IMG/VR virus record: IMGVR_UViG_3300050505_000066 | Location: 1,017-65,016 of that record | DNA length: 64,000 nt | Source of the DNA: a virus | Reading direction: 5' to 3' (one strand) | Notes under the pieces: model-generated | The model's input: the letters and a program-made list of their open reading frames with translations, nothing else | Databases searched by the model: none | What the model was told of the DNA's origin: nothing | In this document: positions 5,501-54,852 of the stretch, piece by piece | How positions within the stretch are numbered: position 1 is the first letter of the stretch | How the letters are laid out: each line of letters starts with the position of its first letter | Program-made: the position numbers and the translations under genes

Positions 5501-5610
5501 CTATAAACACAATCCGTTGCTCTTTGAAGTTCACCTGGAAATAAAAGAGCCGAATGTCGTACTGTAACTAATCCACCATTTAAAAATTCAGTAATTAAAG
5601 GCATTACCAT
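2581..5610 (-). CDS. Large virion tail protein (tail tubular B / P22 gp10-like role by synteny), 1009 aa
   Basis: Size, beta-rich composition and position right after the adaptor-like gene; assignment rests mostly on gene order. Confidence 0.6.
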   Translation of the reverse strand: MVMPLITEFLNGGLVTVRHSALLFPGELQRATDCVYRDKNPSIQRAPGRTVYNVTPLSGGLKGLVQLTFDQNTDQLIAWPQGNGTTSNLYKSDFTALTGTFSVITGPGTIANCITINLNATVTAPAGSFLNMLVGVKVSGPGISAGTYILTVNSDTQITLSQAATASATVTLIFDAGIALSMSDTGKELLDIVQWQSTFFVLPRVGTVNRLFWKQFSGTNAPETLIMRPAGLQPISNAPTVSVQAGPAWSATLGIGYYWFLITEILLSDNSNINDVEAGYVANGGQAVVVSITDVSNQFVRITFPIITNDGTNGKNRATNWGVYMSFIGPGKAAYPDPTNMPPAATFKRIAKPSIENTSLDIKFTNTYQDYLLPTVTGAGPDALPQFTNPSGFTTIGGVFAFGTSGSGQSEENALSSFGFLTGAPWNTYTVTGIEVKVVSRSPGLGTQAGYWIWLDQGPGATSSNRNFGASTYWFFYPKIWGGQFEKWGISWTPVQIGTLRVIIQKSYTASNQELDVDYVAVRVYYTGASAADGSINLDGPPYQVVTYRSQIGTTVSDPANFIIPSASTGDIFQGSLVLNDVTNPSTLRYSIAGAPESFPAPYKIVFDSKNKDIITYIRRIGQILLVGMRDSIKRVNYLPTEVDADFGKGIAHEDIVVDHGIVGPLAATLFDLKGSGVVCGYVSYNGFNYTDGVSTRPFNLDIKIEDLVNTDALFTSILRVYPREKWLVFYYCPKNAAGTHTKNTRAIVFSYSADKIKNGTFLPVTGPLSISARSAASAKLGGVPYLLTGHQTNGTVYIEDNGIIQPSTYQVHDENDILASAPIAPSIITRKIYPAGYDQDTQVQRTYILYDALGTYTQIPCTLVSGSADISSNHFFGQMLIGTFVKGVGIPPQTIVESIFSDSVITLSQPVEFTGDVTLVFDDGTISIGVRGSGISEPVTLIDTKYFSTLTGDLLVSDQNWSKQGIELQIEKVFISDDISVDLNQDMRIYNFSYLASDAGTEMNRANS

Positions 5611-6557
5611 CCACCATAATCAGGATAGAAAGGTCCATTATTCCAAGTAAGTCGGTATTGAGGCCACATCTCCATTTGGGATTTCATGTGAACTATTTCA
5701 TCTTCAGTTACGTTTTCATCATCTTCTTTAGCTTTAGCTAAAGCTCGATTTGAATCTGAAAGAGCTAAAGCGGGATCATCAAATCCTCTTCGGGTTGTAA
5801 TTAACAATCCTCGACAATAATCTAAAAATTTATAAAGATAGGGACCATACATATCAAGAGGATCAGCCATCTCATCAAATCTACGATAATAATCCACACG
5901 AATACTATCTGATTTTTGTGGAACTCTTAAAATTCTAAGTTGAAAGGTTCCTTTATTTTGACTTAAAGCACTTGAAATATTAAAAATTGTGTAAGCTTCA
6001 GGAGTTCCTTGAATTGTTTGATCTAATGTTACTTTATTCCAATCTCTGAATCGAATGAAGTCTAGAGGCCATTTAAGAGCACTTACAAATCGAACTCCAT
6101 AATGTTTACCAAAATCTGTTGGAAGATTATAATCTGTTTGTCCTGCTACAACAGGAATTAAACCACCAAAAGTTAAAGTAGTTGTTGTTGATCCTGTTGG
6201 ATTTGCAGATAGTGTAATAGATGCAATTGAACGATCAGCATTTCGAGTAAAACTTAACACAGTTGTATTTGCTGGAATATTTGTTCCAATTACTGTAATG
6301 CCTGCATTGATTCCATCAAAAACCGACGCCGAGGGAGCAGTTACAACTGGATTTCCTGAATTTAAAATACAATTATTGACAGCAAAAGTAGAAGTATTAT
6401 CTCGAAGAAGAAATTCCCAATCACGATCTTGCCAATCAGCAAAACCACGTAATATTGCTTCCTCAGCCATGGCTAGACTATCTAGTAATCCAGCTCCTCC
6501 AACTGGGCGAGCAATATATTTTTTAGCATCTGCTCGGGTTATTGATAAATTTGACAC
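5604..6557 (-). CDS. Head-tail adaptor / tail tubular A-like protein
   Basis: Helical N-terminus, 'W.FL' motif, 'GQTDYNLPTDF' and 'GTPEAYTIF' segments typical of podovirus adaptors; position. Confidence 0.6.
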   Translation of the reverse strand: MSNLSITRADAKKYIARPVGGAGLLDSLAMAEEAILRGFADWQDRDWEFLLRDNTSTFAVNNCILNSGNPVVTAPSASVFDGINAGITVIGTNIPANTTVLSFTRNADRSIASITLSANPTGSTTTTLTFGGLIPVVAGQTDYNLPTDFGKHYGVRFVSALKWPLDFIRFRDWNKVTLDQTIQGTPEAYTIFNISSALSQNKGTFQLRILRVPQKSDSIRVDYYRRFDEMADPLDMYGPYLYKFLDYCRGLLITTRRGFDDPALALSDSNRALAKAKEDDENVTEDEIVHMKSQMEMWPQYRLTWNNGPFYPDYGGW

Positions 6558-9254: not shown

Positions 9255-10286
9255 TTATGTAACGCCTGACTTGTTGTTAACAGAAAGAATACGACCATTA
9301 GCAAGTTCGTTTAGAACTTCTAGAGTAACTTCACCCACAACGAGACCTGCAACAGAGTCGCCTCGCTTACCGACTAGCTGATGAACCATTGGTCTCAACC
9401 ATGCTAGACGATTCATGTTCCTCTGTAGGAAGAACATCTGTCCACCAGTCGCTGTTGACGACGCAGTAGCAGTGTTAGCATTAGTTGATTCTGGTACCCA
9501 ACGATCTAGCACGACCTGAATTAGGCCGAAATCTGAATCGAAGAAGTCGATAGCCGAAACTAATTTCTTGTCAACGGCAGCAATACCACGAGAGTGAGGT
9601 ACGCTTGAAGACGCACCAGGAACGCTCAAGGCACTTACCTGACGTTTGACTTTTGGACTTACATAAACCTGTTCGGGATTTCCGCCAGCTTTATAAATAA
9701 GTTCCAACATATCATTGAAGTCTCCAACCGCCAACTGACCATCATGCGTAGCATCACCAGTGTTTGGAGCACCAGCATTAGTTCCTGCATACGCAGTATT
9801 GGTAAGAATGAAGGACTGGAAACCTTTCATGACACGTGCCGATGCTGAGTTACCAGTTGCGGTAGTCAACACACCGAACACGACTTTTTCTAGCTTAATT
9901 GCAAGACGCTTTGTTGCCTTTTGAATTTCATAGGCATAGGCATCCTTAAAGCCAGCAGTGTTAATTGCACGCTGCGTTTCGGAAACACCGATATCCTGAC
10001 GCAGAATCATTGTCACATTGAACACACGCGAAGGAGTGGTTGTAGTGTCATAAGTGTAATCGGCACCTTCCACTGCTCCTGTAGTATCCACGGACCCGAG
10101 AGTATCAATTGGCCACTGATGATAAACATGCTGACATGTTACTTTTGGAGCCTGTGATACCCAAGGGGTGTCCCAAGGGTCTACATTGGTGATCTGGTCT
10201 AGTAAGTCTTCCTTAGCTACACCAACACCTGGGAGTAAACCAAACTTATAGGCACCCGCATTACCAATAGGAGTTGAACCCGGCAT
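9255..10286 (-). CDS. Major capsid protein (DUF5309 / SU10-type, HK97 fold)
   Basis: 'EDLLDQITNVDPWDTP', 'HQWPIDTL', 'NVTMILRQDIGVSETQ', 'SDFGLIQVVLDRW' and 'GEVTLEVLNE' match this MCP family; position after the scaffold gene. Confidence 0.9.
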   Translation of the reverse strand: MPGSTPIGNAGAYKFGLLPGVGVAKEDLLDQITNVDPWDTPWVSQAPKVTCQHVYHQWPIDTLGSVDTTGAVEGADYTYDTTTTPSRVFNVTMILRQDIGVSETQRAINTAGFKDAYAYEIQKATKRLAIKLEKVVFGVLTTATGNSASARVMKGFQSFILTNTAYAGTNAGAPNTGDATHDGQLAVGDFNDMLELIYKAGGNPEQVYVSPKVKRQVSALSVPGASSSVPHSRGIAAVDKKLVSAIDFFDSDFGLIQVVLDRWVPESTNANTATASSTATGGQMFFLQRNMNRLAWLRPMVHQLVGKRGDSVAGLVVGEVTLEVLNELANGRILSVNNKSGVT

Positions 10287-12787: not shown

Positions 12788-14749
12788 CTATGTCATAGCC
12801 GCCATCGGAGGTAATTGGCCAGCTGATCCCATTCCTGATTCATTTTCTCCACTATTCATCATAGGAAGTTGAAGAGGTTGTTGTCCTCTTACAATTTGTC
12901 CTGAAGTTGGAATATTGGGTAATTGACCTCCACCAACATTTTGAACCATTTGATTCAATGGTGGTGTAGATTTAAAAATTTCATTTATATTAGGAATTTC
13001 AAACTCTCGGAAAATACCACGCCAGAAATTAACAGCATTAATTTGTGCCATAGCAACTTGACCAAGAGGCGTTCCCATGGCAGTCAAAAGTTGAATCAAA
13101 GCTTGTTGTTTCATACTTTGAGATAGACCAGATGTAGCTCCTACTGCTCTAGCAGCATAATTTGGAACCATATCATAATGATCTAATGTTTCTCGACTAG
13201 CTCCAATTGGTGCTCCAGTGACCGGATCAACTTGTGCTCCATCACCAAGAATCAAAATTTCAACTGGAGTATCTAAGAATTGTTTATCTAAAGCCACAAA
13301 CATATTAGCAAGTGGTTCAAGTGTTGTTTCTTCAAATAATCTAGATTCAAGAAGAAGTCTGGTTCCAGCTGCCTCGCGCCTTCCTACGAATTCACGAGCA
13401 GTTTGACGATCAGGACCTTGTAATCCTTGAACAGCATCATCTACAATTCCTGTACCCATTTGGACGAATTCTTGGATTTGGGCAATTTTATTATCAGCAA
13501 TTGAGAGACCAGCCAAATCTTTCATTAATGGACGAATCATAGCATCAGGATTTCCATCAATCCCAATAAAACGTCCAGGTCTAGCATAAAGATTTCTAGT
13601 ATTTAGATTAGATGCTCGATCATAAAACCAAACAGGATCAATAACAAGATCAGCAGCATCTAGTGATTGATTGATATAACGATTCCCAACTAATTGAAGT
13701 TTTTCGACAGTTTCAGCTTTTCCTGGTGCATAGAAATAATGAGGATCAGGTGTTGGAGCGAAACTTACGAAAGGAAGGAGATTGTGCCAGAAAGGATTTG
13801 GGCGGTTTCGGAATAAATATCTCTTATTTGCGACAGTTAATACACGATTTAAAACGCCGTCTGAAGAAAGTTCGGATGGGATATAGCCCCAAAATTCTAA
13901 TATTTCAATTGGTCTAGAATATCGATCCATCCAGCGAATGGATTCATCATCCATTCCAGCACGTACAGCAAATCTACGAATCATTGACTGGGCATCCGTA
14001 GACTGATAATTGACCCCACCCTCACGCTCTAGCCGAGCTACTTCATTCTTATCAAATATTCCCTCACTCGCGAGGAATCTGATATCATCAAGGTCTAGGA
14101 AATATCTACGAATAACCCATTTCATATCTTTTAGACGTTTTACTCCTGGTTGAGGGAAAAAGTCTAGAAGATCAAGAATTTCGGTTATTGGTCCATCAAA
14201 AGAAGTAATTTCACCTTTTTTGATGCTTTTAACTACACGACCAGAAATTGGGAGTTTATCAACATATTCGATGATTCTTTGTTCTTTTTTACGTTTCCAT
14301 CCGACTTGAGCCACTGCTACTCCATAGAGATCAGCAGTTACTATGAAGTCTGTCATTTTAACGAAGGCATCATCATCCTTCATTTGAGCAGAAACTAGAG
14401 CTTCGCGTTTCCTCGCGGTAGGCATATCATCTGGACCATAACCGAGGAATGTAACAATTGGCCATTTGTTGAGGGATGTGGCTGATTTACGAGCAGCATC
14501 AGCCCAAATGGCTGAGAAAATAAGAGGAATATGGATGTTATTTTTATGAGGATGGAAACGTCCAGTCCAAGTTCCCCTCCAAAGATCATAGAGGCGAGGC
14601 CATTGGATTCGAGTTCCCCCAAAATATTGTTGTGATAACTTCATTCGTGATGTTACAAGATCGATTAATTGATCTCGAAAAGCATCAGGGGTTGGTGCGC
14701 GGTTAATGACTAAACTTGTGTTTGAGCCTCCCGCACTTTGATAAAGCAT
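12788..14749 (-). CDS. Portal protein
   Basis: 653 aa; 'DFFPQPG', 'NPFWHNLLPFVSF', clip-like 'ARPGRFIGIDG' and 'QTAREF' segments; position after terL. Confidence 0.9.
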   Translation of the reverse strand: MLYQSAGGSNTSLVINRAPTPDAFRDQLIDLVTSRMKLSQQYFGGTRIQWPRLYDLWRGTWTGRFHPHKNNIHIPLIFSAIWADAARKSATSLNKWPIVTFLGYGPDDMPTARKREALVSAQMKDDDAFVKMTDFIVTADLYGVAVAQVGWKRKKEQRIIEYVDKLPISGRVVKSIKKGEITSFDGPITEILDLLDFFPQPGVKRLKDMKWVIRRYFLDLDDIRFLASEGIFDKNEVARLEREGGVNYQSTDAQSMIRRFAVRAGMDDESIRWMDRYSRPIEILEFWGYIPSELSSDGVLNRVLTVANKRYLFRNRPNPFWHNLLPFVSFAPTPDPHYFYAPGKAETVEKLQLVGNRYINQSLDAADLVIDPVWFYDRASNLNTRNLYARPGRFIGIDGNPDAMIRPLMKDLAGLSIADNKIAQIQEFVQMGTGIVDDAVQGLQGPDRQTAREFVGRREAAGTRLLLESRLFEETTLEPLANMFVALDKQFLDTPVEILILGDGAQVDPVTGAPIGASRETLDHYDMVPNYAARAVGATSGLSQSMKQQALIQLLTAMGTPLGQVAMAQINAVNFWRGIFREFEIPNINEIFKSTPPLNQMVQNVGGGQLPNIPTSGQIVRGQQPLQLPMMNSGENESGMGSAGQLPPMAAMT

Positions 14750-15353: not shown

Positions 15354-17222
15354 CTAGATTGGCACACGTGGATATTCAAGTTCGTTATCAAAAGGCTCCA
15401 TTGGAATATCTGGTCCATGACCAGGACCCATCCATTGAACTTCCCGTTGCTGGTCAATCATTTCATAAACTTCTTCGATAGAAGGAGGTTTTGAGAAGGC
15501 TCGTAAATCATCTCCCCAAGGAGATCGGGGAACGGCACCCTCATCTGTGATTTGATACTGAGTGGAAGGTTTAACCCAAATTCCAGGTGTAAACCCGTCT
15601 GTTGCGGCATCTGCGAGGTCGTCGTGGTCTACGACATCAATTCGAAGGATTTGATTGAAGAGTTTTCGAACAACCATTGGGATAATCCATTCTCCTGATG
15701 CGTCTTTATGGAGAAGGATACGAACATAATTTTCTACCCAAAAACCAATTCCAGTTCGAATACGTGCTTTTTTGTTGGTTGTTCTATTTAATTGAATAAA
15801 ACGTTCGAATGGTAAAGAAATTCCAACACCATTTACTACTGAAAGAAGACGATTCTTATAAGTTCCTGATTTGCCTCCAGGTTCAATCTCGTCTGTAAGA
15901 GCTTTGACACGAATTTGTCGTCGTCGAAGACTTAAAAGAACTTTAATAAGTTCGCTATTGAAATCTTCTTCGCGCCATTCATTCGAGGCCCTAAGTAAAT
16001 CAGTGTCAAGATACATGACACCATTACGACGAGCATCATGGAGCCAGACGACAATTGCTGAATCATCTCCCGTTCGCACAGTATCAAGGCGTTTAAAAGC
16101 TGTATCAATATGGACAGAAGCGCATTCGATGGGAGTATCAAATTTATAGTCTTTATAGTCTATAAAAAGATCAGCAAGTTGTGATTCAAGGAGTGGAGCA
16201 CGTTCACCAGTTCCTGGGTTATTTTGTTGCTGACAAGCAAAGTCTTCAGGATCACGAGCTTTAGCTTCTTTAATTTTCTTGGCATCCATGAGTGTTGGAT
16301 GCGTCGGCTTCCCTGTTAGTTCATCTTCTGTTTGAAAGAAGTATACATGCCAAATTCCTTGACCCATAGGAACTTTTTCAAACATGGACATATTTGGACA
16401 GGGCATCCCGGACCAAGTGGCTATTCCTTCATCTCTTAAGTGTTTTCCAGCCACGTCATTGTCAAGGTAACGCGTTAGACTAAAGATTAAAAGACCATTG
16501 GTCTGGAGAGCATTATATGAAGCATTGACCGCATCATGGACAGAGCGAAGATAAGCATCTCGTCCTTCACGAAGTTTATTTTTGAAAATTGGATCATCCC
16601 ATATATGAATTCTATGGTGATATCCTGTCATACCAACATCAACTGAGGTTACGTCAAAAGAAGGTTCTGAAAGATTTTTGTTTTTGCGGTAACCGTGATG
16701 AAGGAATTCTTTAGTCCATTCCTTTGCCCCCTTTCTCCAATTTCCATATAACCATGTAAACCAGGCATCAGGATCGTCACCATCCATAACAGCCTGCATG
16801 GCTTTGTAAATGTCTTGGGAAAGAGAACCAGTCGCCGAAGCAATAAGAGTAGACATGTCAGGTTCATCTAGATGTGCCCACAACATTGCTGATTTTGTAG
16901 ATGTAACAGTCTTCCCAAAGCCTCGGGGCATGTTAATACAAAGGTAGTATCTATCAGTACCACCAGATTTACAATAAGCTTTCCAACGAAGAATGTGGGT
17001 TTGGAGCCATTCTAGATATGGACCATGGATTTCTTCTGTAAGCCAAACGGGTTGCTCGGGATGGTTGGAAAAGAAAAATTCCGCACCCCAAGCGACCTGC
17101 ACGAACCACCAAAGGGATTTTGGGTGTGTAGAAATTTCTCCAGAATCATTAAACCAATGATTTGGAGAACAAATTGCTCGAAATATATCTCTTTCTGCTT
17201 CTAAATCCCATTTGGCTTTCAT
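15354..17222 (-). CDS. terL: Terminase large subunit
   Basis: Walker A 'PRGFGKT', Walker B 'HIWDD', nuclease 'HIDTAF', 'DDSAIVV', 'HDDLADA'. Confidence 0.92.
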   Translation of the reverse strand: MKAKWDLEAERDIFRAICSPNHWFNDSGEISTHPKSLWWFVQVAWGAEFFFSNHPEQPVWLTEEIHGPYLEWLQTHILRWKAYCKSGGTDRYYLCINMPRGFGKTVTSTKSAMLWAHLDEPDMSTLIASATGSLSQDIYKAMQAVMDGDDPDAWFTWLYGNWRKGAKEWTKEFLHHGYRKNKNLSEPSFDVTSVDVGMTGYHHRIHIWDDPIFKNKLREGRDAYLRSVHDAVNASYNALQTNGLLIFSLTRYLDNDVAGKHLRDEGIATWSGMPCPNMSMFEKVPMGQGIWHVYFFQTEDELTGKPTHPTLMDAKKIKEAKARDPEDFACQQQNNPGTGERAPLLESQLADLFIDYKDYKFDTPIECASVHIDTAFKRLDTVRTGDDSAIVVWLHDARRNGVMYLDTDLLRASNEWREEDFNSELIKVLLSLRRRQIRVKALTDEIEPGGKSGTYKNRLLSVVNGVGISLPFERFIQLNRTTNKKARIRTGIGFWVENYVRILLHKDASGEWIIPMVVRKLFNQILRIDVVDHDDLADAATDGFTPGIWVKPSTQYQITDEGAVPRSPWGDDLRAFSKPPSIEEVYEMIDQQREVQWMGPGHGPDIPMEPFDNELEYPRVPI

Positions 17223-30382: not shown

Positions 30383-30922
30383 ATGTCGCTCATAATGGTT
30401 GACATTGAGTCTGGTGGTCCATGTCCCGGTCTTTATCCAATGATAGAAATTGGAGCGTGGCATGTAACTCCAAATATCACAAATGGTTTCAGTGTTGAAA
30501 TAATTCCCGATCCCGATAATTTTCATCCTGATACCATGAAAGCTATGAATTGGACTCAAGAAATTCTCTACAATCGACCATATTCAGTTTCACCAATTGA
30601 GGCTATGAAGAGATTTGAGAATTTCATTCTTCAAGCTCAAGGACAACCTATTTTCATCTCCGATAACAATGGATTTGATTGGCAATTTGTGAACTACTAT
30701 TTTTGGAGATATATTGGTCGAAATCCTTTTGGATTCAGTTCAATGAATCTTGGACAATTATATAAAGGTCTTCGACAAGACATTCGTCAAAGCTTCCGAC
30801 ATCTTCGAAAAACAAAACATACTCACAAAGCAATTGATGATGCTCTTGGAAACACAGAGGCTCTTCTTCAAATTCACAAGGACTTTCCTTGCCTCTTTAA
30901 AAATCAAATCCGAGATTTTTGA
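30383..30922 (+). CDS. DEDDh 3'-5' exo(ribo)nuclease
   Basis: 'VDIESGG', 'SDNNGFDW', 'HTHKAIDDA'. Confidence 0.85.
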   Translation: MSLIMVDIESGGPCPGLYPMIEIGAWHVTPNITNGFSVEIIPDPDNFHPDTMKAMNWTQEILYNRPYSVSPIEAMKRFENFILQAQGQPIFISDNNGFDWQFVNYYFWRYIGRNPFGFSSMNLGQLYKGLRQDIRQSFRHLRKTKHTHKAIDDALGNTEALLQIHKDFPCLFKNQIRDF

Positions 30923-36049: not shown

Positions 36050-36799
36050 ATGATAAACCAAAAGATCGCTGAAGATAATTGCATTCTTCGTGCTCAAGTT
36101 GGTTCTAAAGCTCACGGTCTTAACATTGAGGGAACAGATGATACAGACGAGATGGGAATTTGTATTCCTCCTCCTGAATATGTGATTGGTCTTAAACCTT
36201 TTGAGCAGTGGGTTTACAGAACCCAACCCGAGGGAGTTAGAAGTGGTCCCGGTGATCTTGATCTTACGATCTATTCTCTTAAGAAGTATGTAAAGCTTGC
36301 AGCAGGAGGAAATCCATCCATCTTGATGTTGTTGTTTCTTCCATCATATCAATTTAAACATTATCTTGCTGAAGATTTGATTAAACACCGAGAATGGTTC
36401 ATTTCTAAAAGGGCGCTTAAAGCATATCTTAATTATATGATCGCTCAAAAAGAAAGACTTTTTGGGGAAAGAGGTCAAAAACGAGTTAATCGGCCTGAAT
36501 TAGTTGAAGAGTTCGGTTTCGATGTAAAGTACGCTATGCATGTTATTCGTCTTGGACTTCAAGGGCAAGAACTAGCAAAAACTCATAATATTTCATTACC
36601 AATGAATGAAGTGGATAAGGGTTGTTGTTTAGCAATTCGAAAAGGACGATGGTCTCTTATAGAAATTCGTCAATATTATGAATCTTTAAGAACTAAATTA
36701 GAATATGAAATTGATGAAGGAGACCTTCCCGATGAACCAAATCACAATCGAATTGATAATTGGTTAGTTGATGTTCACCAAGAGTATTGGAGACTTTAA
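36050..36799 (+). CDS. DNA polymerase beta-superfamily nucleotidyltransferase (PF10127-like)
   Basis: 'VGSKAHGL...DDTDEMG', 'GNPSIL', 'KYAMHVIRL'. Confidence 0.85.
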   Translation: MINQKIAEDNCILRAQVGSKAHGLNIEGTDDTDEMGICIPPPEYVIGLKPFEQWVYRTQPEGVRSGPGDLDLTIYSLKKYVKLAAGGNPSILMLLFLPSYQFKHYLAEDLIKHREWFISKRALKAYLNYMIAQKERLFGERGQKRVNRPELVEEFGFDVKYAMHVIRLGLQGQELAKTHNISLPMNEVDKGCCLAIRKGRWSLIEIRQYYESLRTKLEYEIDEGDLPDEPNHNRIDNWLVDVHQEYWRL

Positions 36800-37202
36800 A
36801 AGAAAGGGTTTAAGTGAAACAGGAAATTGCTGTTGGTCTAAATAAAGAAACTGCTGATCTTCTCCGTGATTTAGCTTCAAAGATTGGTGTGACAGTAGAT
36901 CATCTTTGGGGTGTACTTGTGAAGCAAGCCCCAATTTATGGGTGGACTATTCTTTCCCTTGGAATTCCTCTTTTGTTCGGATGGATTTTTTGGTTTAGAT
37001 GGTTGGGCTGGCTTGAGAGGACAATAAATAGTAAAAAAGAAAAACATCAATATTATGAAAGTGATCCTCACTATGTTGGAGCAGTAGTAAGTGCAATTTT
37101 ATTAGTAACTGGAACTTTGATATGGGTTTTTAATCTTCCTACAGTTTTTGGTTGTTTATTCAATCCTGAATATTGGGCACTTAAACAAATTTGGAAGTAA
37201 AG

Positions 37203-37766
37203 ATGATTAAAAATGATAAATGGATTCTGAATCATTGTAACTCAACCGATCGTCTCATTGAACCCTTTGAAGTTCAAAAAGAAAAAGGGATTTCGTGGGG
37301 TGTTTCCTCGTTTGGGTATGATCTTCGACTTGCAGATGAATTCAAGATATGTAATGGTGGAGAATATTTTCAACCAGGATCAGCACGGATAATTGATCCA
37401 AAAAACTTTGATCCTAAACTTTTTGAGGATTATAAAGATGATTTTTGTATTATCCCTCCTCATGGTTTCGTTTTAGGTAGGAGTGTTGAGTATCTTCGAA
37501 TTCCACGAAATATTATGACAGTTTGTGTGGGTAAATCTACTTATGCTAGATGTGGGATTATTCTCAATGTGACTCCTCTTGAACCGGAGTGGGAGGGTTA
37601 CGTTACCTTGGAGATTTCTAATACGACTCCACTTCCCGCTAAGATATATGCCAACGAGGGAATAGCCCAAATTCTCTTCTTTGAAGGTGAAGAACCTTGG
37701 ACATCATATGCTGATAAAAAAGGAAAGTATCAAGGACAGAAAGGGATAACACTTCCACGTTTGTGA
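37203..37766 (+). CDS. dcd: dCTP deaminase
   Basis: 'SSFGYDLRL', '[10 protein letters not shown]', 'PLEPEWEG', 'GKYQGQ'. Confidence 0.95.
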
Positions 37767-45233: not shown

Positions 45234-46229
45234 TTGACGAACGATCAAGTGTCTATATTACAAGATCAAATTGAAAAATTCTGGAATTGTCTTCCTCATC
45301 CAACTCCAGATCACGTTGTTCGTTTGTTTGCAAAGAAAGGTGATGTAAGATATGGTGACTTTGCCCGTTCCCCTAGCGAGCTTAAACGTTTTATCCTGGG
45401 CCATCTTGACTTCGATGTGTATATGGCACCTAACCCAACAACAAAAACCACAGAAACTAGACATTCGGCATCTGATGTTGATTATTGGTCTTTTCTTTTC
45501 TTTGACATTGACCCTATCGAATCTATTAATAATCCAACTTTAGCATTAGATGAAATTCTTAAATTATTTGGAGGATGGTCTGGTCATGACTTAATCACAA
45601 AAGATCGACCAACTATTATTGATAGTGGCCGTGGTGTCCAAGCGTGGCTACAACTTGAAAGTATCAATTTAGATCGACCAATCCTCCAAATGAAATTAAC
45701 ACAAAAACCTGTTGAAAGAAAAGAAGTTCGTAAATTAATGAGCTTCTGGCTTCGTCATATTTCAGACCGAATTGGACTTGTTCATGGTTGCCGTCTAGAT
45801 ACCTCGGTGTCGGACTTACCAAGAGTTATGAGAATGCCTGGAACAGTGAATCAGAAAACAGGACGGATGGCGAGCGTTCTTCACTATCAAGAACGACCAT
45901 ATCCTTGGCTTGCTTCATTTCTTATTCATGGCGCACCAGATTCTATCTACCAGGAACCAGATAATTTAAGCATGCCCGAGGGAACTTCATGGCAGATGGT
46001 TTTTAACCGTTTATCAATGCAATCTCAAAAATATTATTTTGAGGGAAAGGCTGAGCCTGGAAGACATAAATTAGCGTGGCACACAGCACGGACGTTTTGT
46101 GAACTTGGAATTAGTCGTGAACAAGCATATTTGTTTATTAAGACAGCTAATAGTCGATTGGGAGAAGATGAAGAACTCGATGAAGGAGCGATAAAGCATG
46201 CCCTTGACACAGCCTATTCCACAGAATGA
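45234..46229 (+). CDS. Archaeo-eukaryotic (RepB-type) primase
   Basis: Motif I 'FFDID', motif II 'SGRGVQ' (usual His is Gln), motif III 'DLPRVMRMPG'; helical C-terminal domain. Confidence 0.75.
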   Translation: MTNDQVSILQDQIEKFWNCLPHPTPDHVVRLFAKKGDVRYGDFARSPSELKRFILGHLDFDVYMAPNPTTKTTETRHSASDVDYWSFLFFDIDPIESINNPTLALDEILKLFGGWSGHDLITKDRPTIIDSGRGVQAWLQLESINLDRPILQMKLTQKPVERKEVRKLMSFWLRHISDRIGLVHGCRLDTSVSDLPRVMRMPGTVNQKTGRMASVLHYQERPYPWLASFLIHGAPDSIYQEPDNLSMPEGTSWQMVFNRLSMQSQKYYFEGKAEPGRHKLAWHTARTFCELGISREQAYLFIKTANSRLGEDEELDEGAIKHALDTAYSTE

Positions 46230-46619
46230 ACCTAATTTTTCAGGCACCTTAGTTTTGAATGATAATGGAGAAAATGGGACTTTTTGGACATATAGTCTGC
46301 CAAATGCTATAGATTTTTATGATTCTAGTTTTGGATCAATTCGACCAAGACAAGTTTGTGATATTCGAACAATGTTTTTTCAAGATTGGATTAGATTAGC
46401 AACATCAGACGTTACAATTTATACATTTAAATTAGTTCTTTCAAACCAAAGAACATATTCAAAATCTAGAAATATTTCAAGATTAGAAGAGGTTCGAGGT
46501 GATAGACCAGGGATTGAAAGAATAACAAAATTTGAGTTAGTGAGTGAACTTTTGAATGGTCAAATTTCTCTTTGTCCCGATCATCGACGACAACTTGAGA
46601 TAATGCGTGAAGAATATTC

Positions 46620-46648
46620 TTGACATAAGGGTTAAATTGTGGTAATAT
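46620..46648 (+). promoter_or_regulatory. Sigma70-type promoter
   Basis: TTGACA-17 nt-TAATAT with TG extension, upstream of the vWA/recombination block. Confidence 0.65.
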
Positions 46649-49982: not shown

Positions 49983-52359
49983 ATATTTATTCGTTCTCCC
50001 TCATAAACCATCTGAAGGAATGTCAGCTTGGTTCTGGAAAGTTGTTTCACAAGAATGTGGAATTCAAACCACTGATTGTGAAGTAATTTACATGTTGGAT
50101 TCAGTTCCTAAAGGAGCATCAGGTCGGGCTACTAAAGAACAAATACGAGCATCATGGGATAGATTTTCTAAAGAGATAGAGGAATCTGAAGCTAGAGTCG
50201 TCATTCCTTTAGGTAGTCAACCTCTTTATTTTCTCACTGGTATTCAAAAATCTATCTTTGATGCTCGTGGTTATGTTATTACCAATAAATTCTTCCGTCC
50301 AATTGAATACGATTCATGGGAACAATTTGGAGAATACAAGACCGGTAACAAAAAATTGGGTCGGATTAAGGGCGATCCAAGATATAAGTGGATAACAAAA
50401 TCAAGTGAAGGACTCCTGGGAAGTGACTTTCAAGGAATAGTCATTCCCACCTTCACTCTTGAATATATCCGAACGTCTGCATTCTCCTGTAAACCCTCCC
50501 TTAAAGAGGATATTCTTCGTGCAAAAAGAGCCAGCAAGGGAACACTTAAACTAGTTGATGAAAACCTTGTTTACTATACGGATTTTTCACATGTAGAAAC
50601 AGAAGATGGAACTCGAACATCCGTATCTTTAAATCTCAAACAAATTCCATGGTCTAAAGATTTGATTGCTTTAGACATTGAAACACATGGAATTGATAAT
50701 GATGTAATTGATCGAGTTTCTATTAGTGATGGACATATAACTGCCTCGCTTGCGTGGTCGAATGAAGTTAGATCATTATTAAATGATATTTTAACTCTTT
50801 CAGAACCTAAGTTTGTTTTTCATAATTCACCATTCGATGTTCCACGTCTAATTCAACATGGTGTGAACATCACAACTCGAATTTTAGAGAATCAGATTTT
50901 TGACACGATGTTCGGGGCAGTTATTCTTCAACCTGATCTTCATAAAGGATTAGGTCGCTGTGCTTCTGTGTATTTAGATTGTCAGTTGTGGAAAGATCAG
51001 AACGAAAGTAATCCAATTTTTTATAGTGCTAAGGATGCCTTCATAACCGCTTGGTTAGCTAGACAAGAGATCAAGGTTATGAAGACCCTTGGAACTTATG
51101 ATCTCTTCACAAAGAAGATAATGCCAGCAATTCCAGTTCTCACGGAAATGACACAAAAGGGCATACGAACAAATCGTCCTTATGCTGAGAAATGGACTAA
51201 AAAATTAGTCCGAAGGCAACTAAAATATGAGCAACTATGGGCAAAGAAATTCCCTAATACCGATCCTCATTCTTCTCAATCTGTACAAAAATTATTGTAT
51301 GGTGAATGGGGACTACCTATACAAAGAACTAGAGAGGGCGGGATTTCGGTTGATGAACTTTCACTTGTAAAACTTAAATATTACATTAACGCTCCTCCAG
51401 AAGAACTTGTTAAAGTTGTAAGTAGTCGAACATTAGACCTTCTTCTCAAGCTCCGTGATGTTTCTAAAATGTTAAGTACCTATGTTCAACCTGTTGCAGA
51501 GAGTGAATCGATTTGGGTTCATCCAAGTTACCTTCCGATTTCCAAAGATGCTGAGGCTGGTAAGTCGAATAAAATGACCAGTAAAGGAAATACTTCTACT
51601 GGTCGCCTAGCAACTTATAATCCAAATATTGGAAATCAACCAAAGAAAGCACGAGTTCTTTATGTTCCTGATAATGAAGATATGTGCTTCCTCGAAGCGG
51701 ATTGGAAGTCCGCTGAATCATATGTAATGGCTTATTCTGCGAACGATAAACGTCTTTTAGATGATCTAAAAATAGGAATTCATGAACAGAATGCCGAACG
51801 ATTTGGAATCGACAGAGATACAGCTAAGAATGTTTATTATGCACAACAATACCTTGCTGGACCATCTAAAGTTAATGAGATGATTCTGGAACAAACTCAT
51901 AAATATGTTCCAGTTGAAGAATGCAAACGAATTATGTATGGTCTTCAAGAATATTACTACCAAACAACTGCCTTTAAAAGGCACCTAGTTCAACTTTGTG
52001 AAACACAGAAATACATAAAGAACCCATTCGGACGAATTAGATTTTTTCATGATGGACGGACACCCGCTGCGGTCGATTTTTGGCCACAATCCATCGTCGC
52101 AGATTGCCTTTGGGAAATCATCCCCGAGGTAGCTAGAATGGCTAAAAGTCTTGGAGGACGTTTTACAACTACTGTTTATGATAGTGTGTTAATCCAAGTG
52201 CCACGACAGGTCATACAAGAAACTGCAGAACGCCTTATGGGGATAATGCAGCGGCGCTTTGAAATCGTAGCACCCTTGTTTTCTATTCCATGTGAGTTAA
52301 AATTTGGACAACCTGGAGCTTCGTGGGGGGAATTAAGTGTTGACAGATTATTCGAATAA
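49975..52359 (+). CDS. Family A DNA polymerase: degenerate UDG-like N-domain + 3'-5' exonuclease + polymerase
   Basis: 'VIPLGSQPL...SIFDARG...VIPTF' UDG-like; ExoI 'LDIET'; 'TGRL'; motif A 'DWKSAE'; motif B 'RDTAKNVYYAQQY'; motif C 'VYDS'. Confidence 0.9.
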   Translation: MSKYLFVLPHKPSEGMSAWFWKVVSQECGIQTTDCEVIYMLDSVPKGASGRATKEQIRASWDRFSKEIEESEARVVIPLGSQPLYFLTGIQKSIFDARGYVITNKFFRPIEYDSWEQFGEYKTGNKKLGRIKGDPRYKWITKSSEGLLGSDFQGIVIPTFTLEYIRTSAFSCKPSLKEDILRAKRASKGTLKLVDENLVYYTDFSHVETEDGTRTSVSLNLKQIPWSKDLIALDIETHGIDNDVIDRVSISDGHITASLAWSNEVRSLLNDILTLSEPKFVFHNSPFDVPRLIQHGVNITTRILENQIFDTMFGAVILQPDLHKGLGRCASVYLDCQLWKDQNESNPIFYSAKDAFITAWLARQEIKVMKTLGTYDLFTKKIMPAIPVLTEMTQKGIRTNRPYAEKWTKKLVRRQLKYEQLWAKKFPNTDPHSSQSVQKLLYGEWGLPIQRTREGGISVDELSLVKLKYYINAPPEELVKVVSSRTLDLLLKLRDVSKMLSTYVQPVAESESIWVHPSYLPISKDAEAGKSNKMTSKGNTSTGRLATYNPNIGNQPKKARVLYVPDNEDMCFLEADWKSAESYVMAYSANDKRLLDDLKIGIHEQNAERFGIDRDTAKNVYYAQQYLAGPSKVNEMILEQTHKYVPVEECKRIMYGLQEYYYQTTAFKRHLVQLCETQKYIKNPFGRIRFFHDGRTPAAVDFWPQSIVADCLWEIIPEVARMAKSLGGRFTTTVYDSVLIQVPRQVIQETAERLMGIMQRRFEIVAPLFSIPCELKFGQPGASWGELSVDRLFE

Positions 52360-53119
52360 TGATACAATTGATGTTGAAATTATGCATGACAATACTTCTG
52401 GAGGAACAAAAGAACTTTACGCTCGACCTGGAAAATTTCTTGGAATCGATGGACCAGAAGAAGATAAAAGGATTCTTGAAAGAATGAATAAGCAAACTAC
52501 AATCTACTTATCCGGGCCAATGAGCGGATTGCCAGATTATAATTCTGCAGAGTTCGCTAAATACGCAGAAATCTATCGTCAACAAGGATTCCGGGTTCTT
52601 TCCCCTCCCGAATTAGATGCCGGGGATTGGTCTAAGGATTATGCATTCTACATTAAAAGGGATATTGAAGTCCTTGTAAAAGAACACGTCAGTCGTATCT
52701 ATCTTCTTCCTGGTTGGCAAGATTCTCGTGGAGCTAGACTCGAACACCACATTGCAGAGCTTCTTGGAATTGGAATTTACGATGCTGTAACAGGTAAGCC
52801 ATATAAAGAAACAGTTGCTCAAGAAGCAAATAGAATTGTAAATGGAGACCGCCGAGGGAACTATGGTTCTCCCCTCAAAGATTTTGGTCGTACCTCGGGC
52901 ATGCTTAATGCATTGTTAGCACATAAGCTTCGAGAGAAATTATCTGAAGAAGATGTTTCTTTAATTATGATTTGTGTGAAACTCAGTCGTTTAGCAAATT
53001 CACCTGATCATAGAGATTCCCTCGTGGATATTTGTGGGTATGCTTTAACGTATGAACTAGTTCAGAGTGAACGAAAGGATTATAGTGGGACTGTGGTTTC
53101 TGGATCAAGCACGAAATAG
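52337..53119 (+). CDS. DUF4406 (nucleoside deoxyribosyltransferase-like) + DUF6378-like fusion with a portal-like N-terminal peptide
   Basis: 'IYLSGPMSGLPDYN', 'W.DSRGARLE', 'GDRRGNYGSP', 'DSLVDICGYA'. Confidence 0.75.
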   Translation: MLTDYSNNDTIDVEIMHDNTSGGTKELYARPGKFLGIDGPEEDKRILERMNKQTTIYLSGPMSGLPDYNSAEFAKYAEIYRQQGFRVLSPPELDAGDWSKDYAFYIKRDIEVLVKEHVSRIYLLPGWQDSRGARLEHHIAELLGIGIYDAVTGKPYKETVAQEANRIVNGDRRGNYGSPLKDFGRTSGMLNALLAHKLREKLSEEDVSLIMICVKLSRLANSPDHRDSLVDICGYALTYELVQSERKDYSGTVVSGSSTK

Positions 53120-53396
53120 ACTTTGGTTAAATGATTATACTGGTGAATGGATTTTTACACGACCTGAATTAAGATATCAAAGATGTAAAAATCCAATTTT
53201 TGTTCATTTTAAACGTGAAACTCAACCAGGATTTCATAATCGTAGCCATAGAAAAGCAATTTCAAATGCTTGGTATAAATATTTACTAGATCAAATTACT
53301 AATATTGATCCTTGGGAAACTCCTTGGATTTGGAAACATCCTAAAATAACAGATTTTATATGCGATATTGTGCCGAATGTCATGGTAGAAAAATAA
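53067..53396 (+). CDS. Hypothetical protein containing a copy of the MCP N-arm peptide
   Basis: LLDQITNIDPWETPWIWKHPKIT versus MCP LLDQITNVDPWDTPWVSQAPKVT. Confidence 0.7.
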   Translation: MNERIIVGLWFLDQARNRLWLNDYTGEWIFTRPELRYQRCKNPIFVHFKRETQPGFHNRSHRKAISNAWYKYLLDQITNIDPWETPWIWKHPKITDFICDIVPNVMVEK

Positions 53397-53923
53397 AAGC
53401 TGTTCTTGGTTCTCGTTGTATAAGACATTACCTTTGGAGACAAGCTAGATATCATAGAATTTCTAAATATGGATGGTGGAAACATCACGTTCCTAAACTT
53501 TCTAGACAAATTCTTGGACGATATCTTGCAATTAGTGAGGGATTTGATCCAGGAAACATCAAACCCATTATTCAACAGTTTTTAATGGGTGATCATTCAG
53601 TTCATAGATCAAAGAAGAAAGCTCGATATTCAGGAATTATTGCGATAGTTAAGATCATAGACGCAGCAGATAGACACGCTAGGAAGGATTATGAAGCCAG
53701 TCAACGTAGCAATAGTAGCAAAGAAAATTGATGGGAAGTATGAAGGAGTTTATCTTGTGGATAATCGTTTCACAAGAATTTTAACTGGAACGGCCCTCGT
53801 GCCAATGGTTCAAGGACAGATTTCAAAGATACTTAAAGAGGATTTTCCTGAAGGTGTTGATGTAGCGATCAATATTAGCATTAATGAAGACGATACAATT
53901 CAACCCAAAGAAGAAGAAAAAGA

Positions 53924-54262
53924 ATGACTCTAGGTGAACAACAAAGATTATTTGGTAAATTAGTTGGAGAACTTCTTCATCATATTTATGATCAAAAATT
54001 AGAAGTCACCTTAGATTGGATGTATCGTCCTCCTGAAGTTGCTGCTTACTATGCATCCATCGGCGTGGGAATCCGTTCAAGTCTTCATACACTTAAACTT
54101 GCTCTTGATATAAATTTGTTTAAAGATGGGGTTTGGCTTCGTGATACTGAATCTCATAAACCTATTGGTGAATGGTGGAAACAACAACATCCACTTTGTC
54201 GATGGGGTGGAGATTGGGGAGATGGAAATCACTATAGTTTAGAATGGAATGGGGTTAAATGA
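53924..54262 (+). CDS. Endolysin, peptidase M15 family
   Basis: 'SLH.LKLALD' (SxHxxxxAxD), 'WGGDW', 'DGNHYS'. Confidence 0.88.
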   Translation: MTLGEQQRLFGKLVGELLHHIYDQKLEVTLDWMYRPPEVAAYYASIGVGIRSSLHTLKLALDINLFKDGVWLRDTESHKPIGEWWKQQHPLCRWGGDWGDGNHYSLEWNGVK

Positions 54263-54852
54263 TAAATGCAAAACTTCTAGTAGTGGATGTCGAAACAGGT
54301 GGATTGGACCCAAGTGAACATTCAATCCTCAGCTTGGGGGCAGTAGTTTTAGATGAAGGAGAAGTTGTAGATAAGTTTCTCGCAACTATCAAAGAACCTA
54401 ATTTTTTAGCGACAGAACCTGCTTTGAAAATCAATGGCTTTACCAAAGAACGAATTGAAAAAGAAGGGCATAATCCTGAAGAAGTTGTCCTAGAATTTGA
54501 GTCTTTTATCCTCCGGAATGATTTTGATGATGATAAAATCGTTCTTGCAGGTCATAATGTAAATTTTGACATTGGATTTATTAAACGTCTCTATTCATTT
54601 ACAAAACAAAGTTATGAATCCAGATTCTCACATAGAGTTCTAGATACTCAAACAGCAGCACTTCTTTTAAAGTATGCCGGTAGAATCACCACCGAGGCAA
54701 CAAGTTTAGATGCTCTTTGTGCATGTTTTGGGATTAAGGGACGAAAGAAAGGAACACCACATACAGCTTTAGAGGATGCTGAATTAACAGCGGAACTTCT
54801 TAAACGAGAGTTAAAAATGTTAGAGCAACCACTTACAATACCGGATTTTTAA
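54259..54852 (+). CDS. DnaQ-like 3'-5' exonuclease
   Basis: 'DVETGG', 'GHNVNFD', 'HTALED'. Confidence 0.9.
   Translation: MINAKLLVVDVETGGLDPSEHSILSLGAVVLDEGEVVDKFLATIKEPNFLATEPALKINGFTKERIEKEGHNPEEVVLEFESFILRNDFDDDKIVLAGHNVNFDIGFIKRLYSFTKQSYESRFSHRVLDTQTAALLLKYAGRITTEATSLDALCACFGIKGRKKGTPHTALEDAELTAELLKRELKMLEQPLTIPDF

Follow-up and report, generated by a model that had tools for sequence, protein, structure and literature searches.

A copied portal segment on a replication-module enzyme of a rhizosphere phage, a putative mimic of the portal clip

We analyzed a 64,000-nucleotide stretch of viral DNA (positions 1,017 to 65,016 of IMG/VR record IMGVR_UViG_3300050505_000066; hereafter the window), in which a gene at 52337-53119 encodes a DUF4406/DUF6378 enzyme with an N-terminal extension. 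Comparison of this extension with the other proteins of the window indicates that a piece of the phage's own portal gene was copied into it long ago, and comparison with a second phage indicates that purifying selection has kept that piece. It seems that the phage puts parts of its structural proteins to a second use as mimic tags, and we tentatively regard the tail of the enzyme as a putative competitor for a host sensor of the portal protein. The window makes up nearly all of the 65.6-kb record, which CheckV rates as complete; the phage is present in rhizosphere metagenomes and was recovered in three independent assemblies.

The enzyme extension matches a segment of the portal protein

The features on which the match depends are as follows.

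52337-53119, plus strand: enzyme gene (260 residues), with the N-terminal extension at residues 1-54, DUF4406 at 55-147 and DUF6378 at 160-236
52361-52468, plus strand: portal-derived segment of the extension (residues 9-44), from hhalign and BLASTP
52415-52453, plus strand: 13-residue core LYARPGKFLGIDG (residues 27-39), 11/13 identical to the portal
12788-14749, minus strand: portal gene (653 residues, SU10-type), PF23899 SU10_portal, E = 8e-25
13591-13553, minus strand: portal counterpart LYARPGRFIGIDG (residues 387-399), within the portal open reading frame (ORF)
13538-13648, minus strand: portal source segment (residues 368-404), which runs from the end of stem helix alpha3 into the first part of the clip and includes R385, R390 and R393

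When all 188 window ORFs of at least 60 residues were compared with one another without gaps, the enzyme-portal pair scored 43.6 bits, whereas the best match per residue-shuffled proteome ranged from 26.4 to 34.4 bits (25 shuffles). A preliminary description of this DNA had reported the two 13-mers as identical at 11 of 13 residues; we confirmed both their positions and this identity (31 of 39 nucleotides are identical as well) and found that the homology extends to 36 residues. Together with the TKE that precedes it, LYARPGKFLGIDG makes up a 16-residue conserved motif, T-K-x-L-Y-x-R-P-G-basic-F-hydrophobic-G-hydrophobic-D-G. The BLASTP comparison of enzyme and portal that the same description had suggested aligned extension residues 11-39 with portal residues 370-399 at E = 1e-7 (16/30 identities, one gap), and a gapped search of the pair with the E-value scaled to the database gave 3e-4. 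When 34 portals were aligned with three N-extensions by hhalign, portal residues 368-404 corresponded to extension residues 9-44 over 36 columns, with a probability of 95.1% and E = 3.4e-8. Because the similarity reaches beyond the 13-mer, the extension is a diverged copy of about 100 nucleotides of the portal gene and not a convergent motif; the outer part of the segment, extension residues 9-22, is only weakly similar to the portal. A degenerate DNA pattern for the motif found only the enzyme and portal sites in the 65.6-kb record, and a reversed control pattern found none. Of the 12 residues of the 16-residue core that enzyme and portal share, five are differently encoded.

The extension is almost certainly translated

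The body of the enzyme was assigned to its two families: residues 55-147 scored 73.1 bits against DUF4406 (PF14359; gathering cutoff, 22) and residues 160-236 scored 70.9 bits against DUF6378 (PF19905; gathering cutoff, 27.1). The DUF4406 domain has a fold similar to those of nucleoside 2-deoxyribosyltransferase and the CMP N-glycosidase MilB (Foldseek probability of 1.0, TM score to the target of about 0.5), and it also resembles phrog_355. The enzyme ORF sits after the DNA polymerase A gene and overlaps the polA stop codon at 52357-52359. The GTG at 52337 is the likely start, with a G-rich, Shine-Dalgarno (SD)-like run (GGGGGG) and a 6-nucleotide spacer upstream; the ATG at 52382 is an alternative, and the motif is included from either. 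Gene callers placed the start at 52337 or 52382 in the three assemblies, never at 52484. This last position is that of an internal ATG.

52484-52486, plus strand: internal ATG (M50) at the canonical DUF4406 start position; the nearest AGGA lies 11 nucleotides upstream, a poor SD spacing

Most homologues of the enzyme begin at this position, directly before IYLSGPM. We searched for RNA runs holding the enzyme region and found none. The preliminary description had asked for confirmation that the extension is translated, and this is borne out by a homologue at locus L001 (protein P0004): its start, GGAGG-N6-ATG, overlaps the stop codon upstream of it and precedes the motif by five codons, and from the motif to IYLSG, the first domain strand, there is no in-frame ATG, GTG or TTG. 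Since no alternative in-frame start follows the motif, the motif must be part of the L001 protein, and the extension is almost certainly translated.

The copied segment maps to the stem and clip of the portal

The window portal matches PF23899 with 87.7 bits (cutoff, 30), and 293 portal homologues were found. An AlphaFold2 (AF2) model of it matches the solved podophage portals of VP1, A4, N4, SU10 and T7 and the Avs4-bound portal of PhiV-1 (Z scores of 17 to 26). In the model, a helix at residues 344-373 (H344-373) is followed by residues 374-416, by H417-433, by a loop and by a 40-residue helix, H451-490, a layout that agrees with the one published for T7 gp8 (stem, clip, stem, tunnel loop, wing helix). 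Residues 374-416, which contain the motif at 384-399 and a short helix at 401-405, are poorly modeled (predicted local distance difference test [pLDDT] of <50, with strands unmodeled in the monomer). As the copied segment lies between two stem helices, it comprises the last stretch of the first stem helix together with the beginning of the clip; the proposal in the preliminary description that the segment maps to the clip thus agrees with its place between H344-373 and H417-433. The motif is kept in 117 of 120 portal homologues, and T384, Y388, R390, P391, G392 and G399, all of them invariant or nearly so in 34 portals, are kept in the enzyme motif. In the AF2 model of the enzyme, residues 1-39 have a pLDDT of <50, and the tail is therefore predicted to be disordered or flexible. 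A complex prediction with extension residues 1-60 and two copies of portal residues 335-445 left the chains unfolded and speaks neither for nor against any reading.

A second phage carries the motif, which is otherwise rare

P0004 is 56% identical to the window enzyme and is encoded on a 66-kb contig from another sample; its extension begins MAEIDTKNLYLRPGRFIGVDGDPQDY. The portal of this second phage is on the same contig, and the enzyme-portal pair is the best self-match of that phage, at 40.2 bits. The motif occupies residues 24-39 of 260 in the window protein and 6-21 of 250 in the L001 protein, always 12-17 residues before the first DUF4406 strand. The two enzymes have the same residue at 12 of 20 motif positions (12/16 in the core) but the same codon at only 4 of these 12, in line with the earlier claim that the peptide rather than the DNA is conserved. 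Third codon positions differ at 14 of 20 in the motif versus 31 of 45 in the catalytic core (in which 69% of residues are identical), and the flanking parts of the two extensions cannot be aligned. The three basic positions of the motif are also kept in the enzymes. These comparisons indicate that purifying selection has kept the portal-derived piece. An exact 7-mer, RQTAREF, common to an L001 ORF and the portal was at chance level and was set aside.

The motif is rare, occurring in two lineages among about 105 enzyme homologues. Among 28 sequence relatives of the enzyme it is found only in the window protein and P0004, it is missing from all 80 IMG/VR DUF4406 loci, and scanning IMG/VR with a strict degenerate pattern returned only three portals and no further enzyme-type copies. 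A word-based search with extension residues 1-52 returned the query alone, although such a search is insensitive (the L001 homologue shares no 5-mer with the query). The preliminary description had looked to homologues to carry the peptide, and about 105 others lack it. In a third lineage (L105), an extension with an SD-GTG start shares IDxxHDN with that of the window, and its hairpin is degenerate; the family members P0005 and P0013 have unrelated N-extensions. One gain of the motif and two gains are indistinguishable because the enzyme tree is an unresolved polytomy. The same description had proposed that the peptide should covary with each phage's own portal. Instead, in the two genomes available, it is the family consensus that the motif follows: in the L001 enzyme it agrees with that phage's own portal at 12 of 20 positions but with both the window portal and the family consensus at 14 of 20, and opposite the divergent RWIATDG of the second phage's portal the enzyme has the consensus RFIGVDG. 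We describe this distribution as an accessory, arms-race-like pattern.

A capsid-protein fragment, and possibly a second, in replication-module genes

The gene that adjoins the enzyme carries a piece related to the major capsid protein, and a more distant early gene may do so.

9255-10286, minus strand: major capsid protein (343 residues), PF17236 SU10_MCP
53067-53396, plus strand: ORF 53067 (103-109 residues), adjoining the enzyme, with a C-terminal part (core 53283-53351) homologous to the capsid N-arm
10205-10137, minus strand: capsid N-arm residues 28-50, source of the ORF 53067 peptide
46198-46623, plus strand: early ORF 46198 (141 residues), of which residues 33-123 (nucleotides 46294-46566) weakly resemble the capsid C-terminal third
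9569-9291, minus strand: capsid residues ~240-332, the weak match to ORF 46198

The pair formed by ORF 53067 and the capsid protein is the strongest self-match in the window (58.1 bits). Within it, LLDQITNIDPWETPWI of ORF 53067 matches capsid N-arm residues 28-43, with 37 of 48 nucleotides identical, and four representative homologues of ORF 53067, with 31-47% identity, all keep ITNIDPW[DE]TPW. When the ORF 53067 family was compared with the major capsid protein family by hhalign, 40 residues aligned with a probability of 97.8% and E = 6.8e-13; the N-arm motif is also conserved in the solved relative 9ny2. Genes of this family come after the DUF4406 enzyme in L101, and probably also in L100 and L103, and one comes straight after polA in L104; no gene of the family was found on long contigs. 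ORF 53067 also has a conserved basic N-terminal motif, NPIFVHY..R...PGFHNRGHRKAIS, for which Pfam and PHROG gave no match. A similarity of ORF 53067 to a nozzle protein was rejected (hhalign probability of 0.8%).

ORF 46198 is a possible third case of a structural fragment and is not secure. Its BLASTP pair with the capsid protein has E = 9e-5, and hhalign gives a probability of 79% and E = 1.6e-5, with a marginal database-wide E of 0.013; the likeness lies in AIDF[FY]DS.FG, RN.sRL, RGD and EL.NG.I. The ungapped 13-mer shared with capsid residues 242-254, taken alone, is at chance level, its 31.0 bits being reached by 3 of 25 shuffles, and no homologues of ORF 46198 were found in IMG/VR.

In the complete relative G001, two head-module ORFs (L111:11435-11542 and L111:14513-14611) have a common motif, Y.YG.RP..G.N.EDI, that weakly resembles the extreme N terminus of the capsid protein (E = 0.002). 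The capsid gene of G001 is itself split between codons ~36 and ~43, inside the N-arm motif (L111:16944-17665, that is, G001 36944-37665), by an interruption of ~650 bp that carries a LAGLIDADG-type ORF, a paralogue of which is found immediately upstream (G001 36435-36905). The interruption is probably an intron whose homing endonuclease is directed at the same conserved stretch.

Genome layout and neighboring genes

The head and tail module of the window phage is SU10-like and lies on the minus strand, and the replication module lies on the plus strand. Cultured phages gave no DNA match to the window phage, and the portal identity to them is at most 28%. Further genes named in this work are the following.

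15354-17222, minus strand: TerL, in the head and tail module
5604-6557, minus strand: adaptor, in the head and tail module
53360-53731: small CxxC...CxRC protein, with counterparts at L100:480-923, L105:7704-8117 and L001:10645-11079

The small CxxC...CxRC protein, which has no family match, always comes after the enzyme (or ORF 53067) in this phage group, and L100 and L101 share the order enzyme, ORF 53067 homologue, CxxC protein. Two relatives have a further small protein encoded between polA and the enzyme (L001:9655-10008 and L105:6612-7004), which the window phage does not have there. The protein carries the motif KYG..L...NGRDALMDA.QE, and its likeness to a MazG-type pyrophosphatase was judged by eye only. 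Elsewhere in the window, the plus-strand ORFs 54259-54852 and 30383-30922 are distant paralogues (24% identity over 113 residues, E = 2e-4), and the L001 counterpart of the former has RNase_T/DEDDh exonuclease matches. Genes in the early region of the other phage with the motif include those for an Amidoligase_2 protein and a Fic-domain protein (L094:1-891 and L094:2284-2757).

A tentative role for the portal-derived tail

In the mechanism that we tentatively put forward, the tail of the enzyme would be a molecular mimic of the portal clip, the docking surface that protrudes from the capsid, and would allow a soluble protein, expressed along with the replication genes, to fill a binding site meant for the clip. 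The favored target would be a host defense sensor that recognizes unassembled or free portal via its stem and clip. EcAvs4 binds the stem, clip and wing of the monomeric portal and SpbK binds the clip of YonE (PMC12847820), and the earlier statement that portal-sensing Avs proteins contact the clip holds for EcAvs4, which contacts both stem and clip (PMC12847820). A monovalent copy on an abundant non-structural protein would compete with the portal while offering neither the complete fold nor the 12-fold ring that activates such sensors; the tail might also bring a nucleotide-hydrolyzing enzyme to the sensor, and the capsid N-arm copy in the next gene would play the same role against a sensor of a capsid motif. 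We lean toward a host sensor because the distribution is patchy and accessory and the motif follows the family consensus rather than its own portal, and because the gene lies in the replication module and the fragments come from the two most often sensed structural proteins. A sensor that reads the conserved core would need no covariation with the phage's own portal. A broader proposal, which we hold to be rather unlikely, is that this lineage repeatedly turned fragments of its own most conserved structural proteins (stem and clip of the portal, the N-arm of the capsid protein and possibly its C-terminal third) into parts of replication-module genes; the set would be putative self-epitope decoys, made before the real structural proteins and blunting portal and capsid sensors, one of them delivering a nucleotide-hydrolyzing enzyme.

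Several points weigh against a competitor for a host sensor. Avs sensors use extended, shape-complementary, fold-wide interfaces (bioRxiv 10.64898/2026.01.04.697583), which argues against a piece of 16 to 36 residues blocking an Avs4-type sensor, and the attachment of a decoy to an enzyme is unexplained. An untagged short isoform from the ATG at 52484 could be the main product in the window phage. Since only two genomes carry the motif, selection on it was judged from one pairwise comparison. Finally, self-comparison of the complete relatives G001 and G002 revealed no copies of structural fragments in their early genes.

Nearly as likely as a competitor for a host sensor, if still doubtful, is a tag for the phage's own clip partners, namely TerL, the embracing loop or acidic dock of the adaptor, and neighboring portal subunits. 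Such a tag would bring the enzyme to the packaging vertex, set the timing of a partner's use or dampen it, or carry the enzyme into particles, and the capsid N-arm copy in the next gene would dock on the capsid or scaffold. The clip is the docking site for adaptor and terminase; the adaptor binds it in SU10, where an embracing loop is wedged between clips, and in T7, where an acidic patch meets a basic belt (PMC9509320, PMC6702177). The enzyme residues K25, R30 and K33 match basic positions of the clip, the order of the enzyme and the N-arm-bearing ORF is conserved in related phages, and the weak motifs resembling the capsid N terminus on two head-module ORFs of G001 (E = 0.002) would fit as well. 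The motif is also N-terminal on a non-structural protein, as are the short capsid-targeting peptides of T4, which offer a precedent. Against this, the W, A and T of the second phage's portal (L094) are not mirrored in its enzyme, so that the two do not covary; the adaptor loop and the terminase tails bind composite sites of at least two clips that one hairpin cannot rebuild; the absence of the tag from most relatives implies that it is not needed for assembly; and there is no evident reason for a nucleotide hydrolase at the motor.

Explanations that involve no mimicry fare less well. It is improbable that the portal fragment was exapted as a regulatory, autoinhibitory or oligomerization element or simply as a well-folding hairpin: its conservation and its constant distance of 12-17 residues from the first DUF4406 strand would suit such a role, as would the unrelated N-extensions of P0005 and P0013, but AF2 leaves the tail undocked on the domain (pLDDT of <50), exactly the portal-invariant residues are retained, and the capsid-derived fragment in the next gene, as a parallel case, suggests that both follow one logic connected with structural proteins. 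We consider still less probable a relic, that is, an illegitimate duplication of ~100 nucleotides of the portal gene that is translated, functionless and slowly decaying. The degenerate hairpin of L105, the absence of the motif from most homologues and the weak similarity of residues 9-22 to the portal would be expected of a relic, but between the two phages the core is as conserved as the catalytic domain despite saturated synonymous sites, while unconstrained flanks have diverged beyond alignment over the same time. A chance match, or an untranslated leader or intergenic sequence, might be suspected where DUF4406 proteins normally start at the position of the internal ATG; it is effectively refuted by the shuffled proteomes (43.6 bits versus at most 34.4), by the hhalign E-value of 3.4e-8, by the motif being the top self-match of the second phage (40.2 bits) and by the lack of an alternative start in L001.

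Among proteins, portals and major capsid proteins most often trigger bacterial immunity (Avs, SpbK, CapRel and Lit). A phage whose non-structural proteins carry short, conserved copies of its own exposed clip and capsid N-arm is a clean, testable candidate that bears on how phages escape sensing without changing constrained structural proteins. If the purpose of the copies is instead internal, such as targeting to the packaging vertex or capsid, they would represent a new way of building targeting tags, by duplication of structural-gene fragments. Either way, significant short self-matches between structural and early genes are a signature that can be searched for in other phage genomes.

Comparison with known systems

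The body of the window enzyme is that of an ordinary member of the two-domain DUF4406/DUF6378 phage enzymes, in which the portal-derived motif is confined to the window phage and one further lineage, with a degenerate form in a third. Short-motif mimicry and N-terminal targeting peptides are already known; in the literature searched, we found no description of a phage that bears copies of its own trigger-type structural epitopes on non-structural proteins. The closest parallels are SpbK with YonE (Bacillus subtilis SPbeta) and EcAvs4 with PhiV-1 gp8, in which a defense protein binds the portal stem and clip; the window segment covers the end of stem helix alpha3 and the clip hairpin. In those two systems, however, the epitope is on the portal itself and triggers immunity, whereas in the window phage a copy is on a non-structural enzyme. 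For Lit (the Gol peptide) and CapRel, a short linear piece of a structural protein suffices for recognition (bioRxiv 10.64898/2026.01.04.697583), and peptide-sized epitopes can therefore matter. The motifs recognized by Lit and CapRel are in the capsid protein and act as triggers, whereas the copies in the window phage are on non-structural proteins.

The capsid-targeting sequence of T4 is a short N-terminal peptide that directs non-structural internal cargo to the assembling head; it attaches to the scaffolding core, is cleaved off by the prohead protease and does not duplicate a structural protein. The window tail differs in that no protease was recognized here and in that the clip is outside the capsid. 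Eukaryotic viruses have disordered tails with short conserved motifs that copy host proteins and compete for binding sites, whereas the window phage copies its own structural protein, and does so by gene-fragment duplication and not by convergence.
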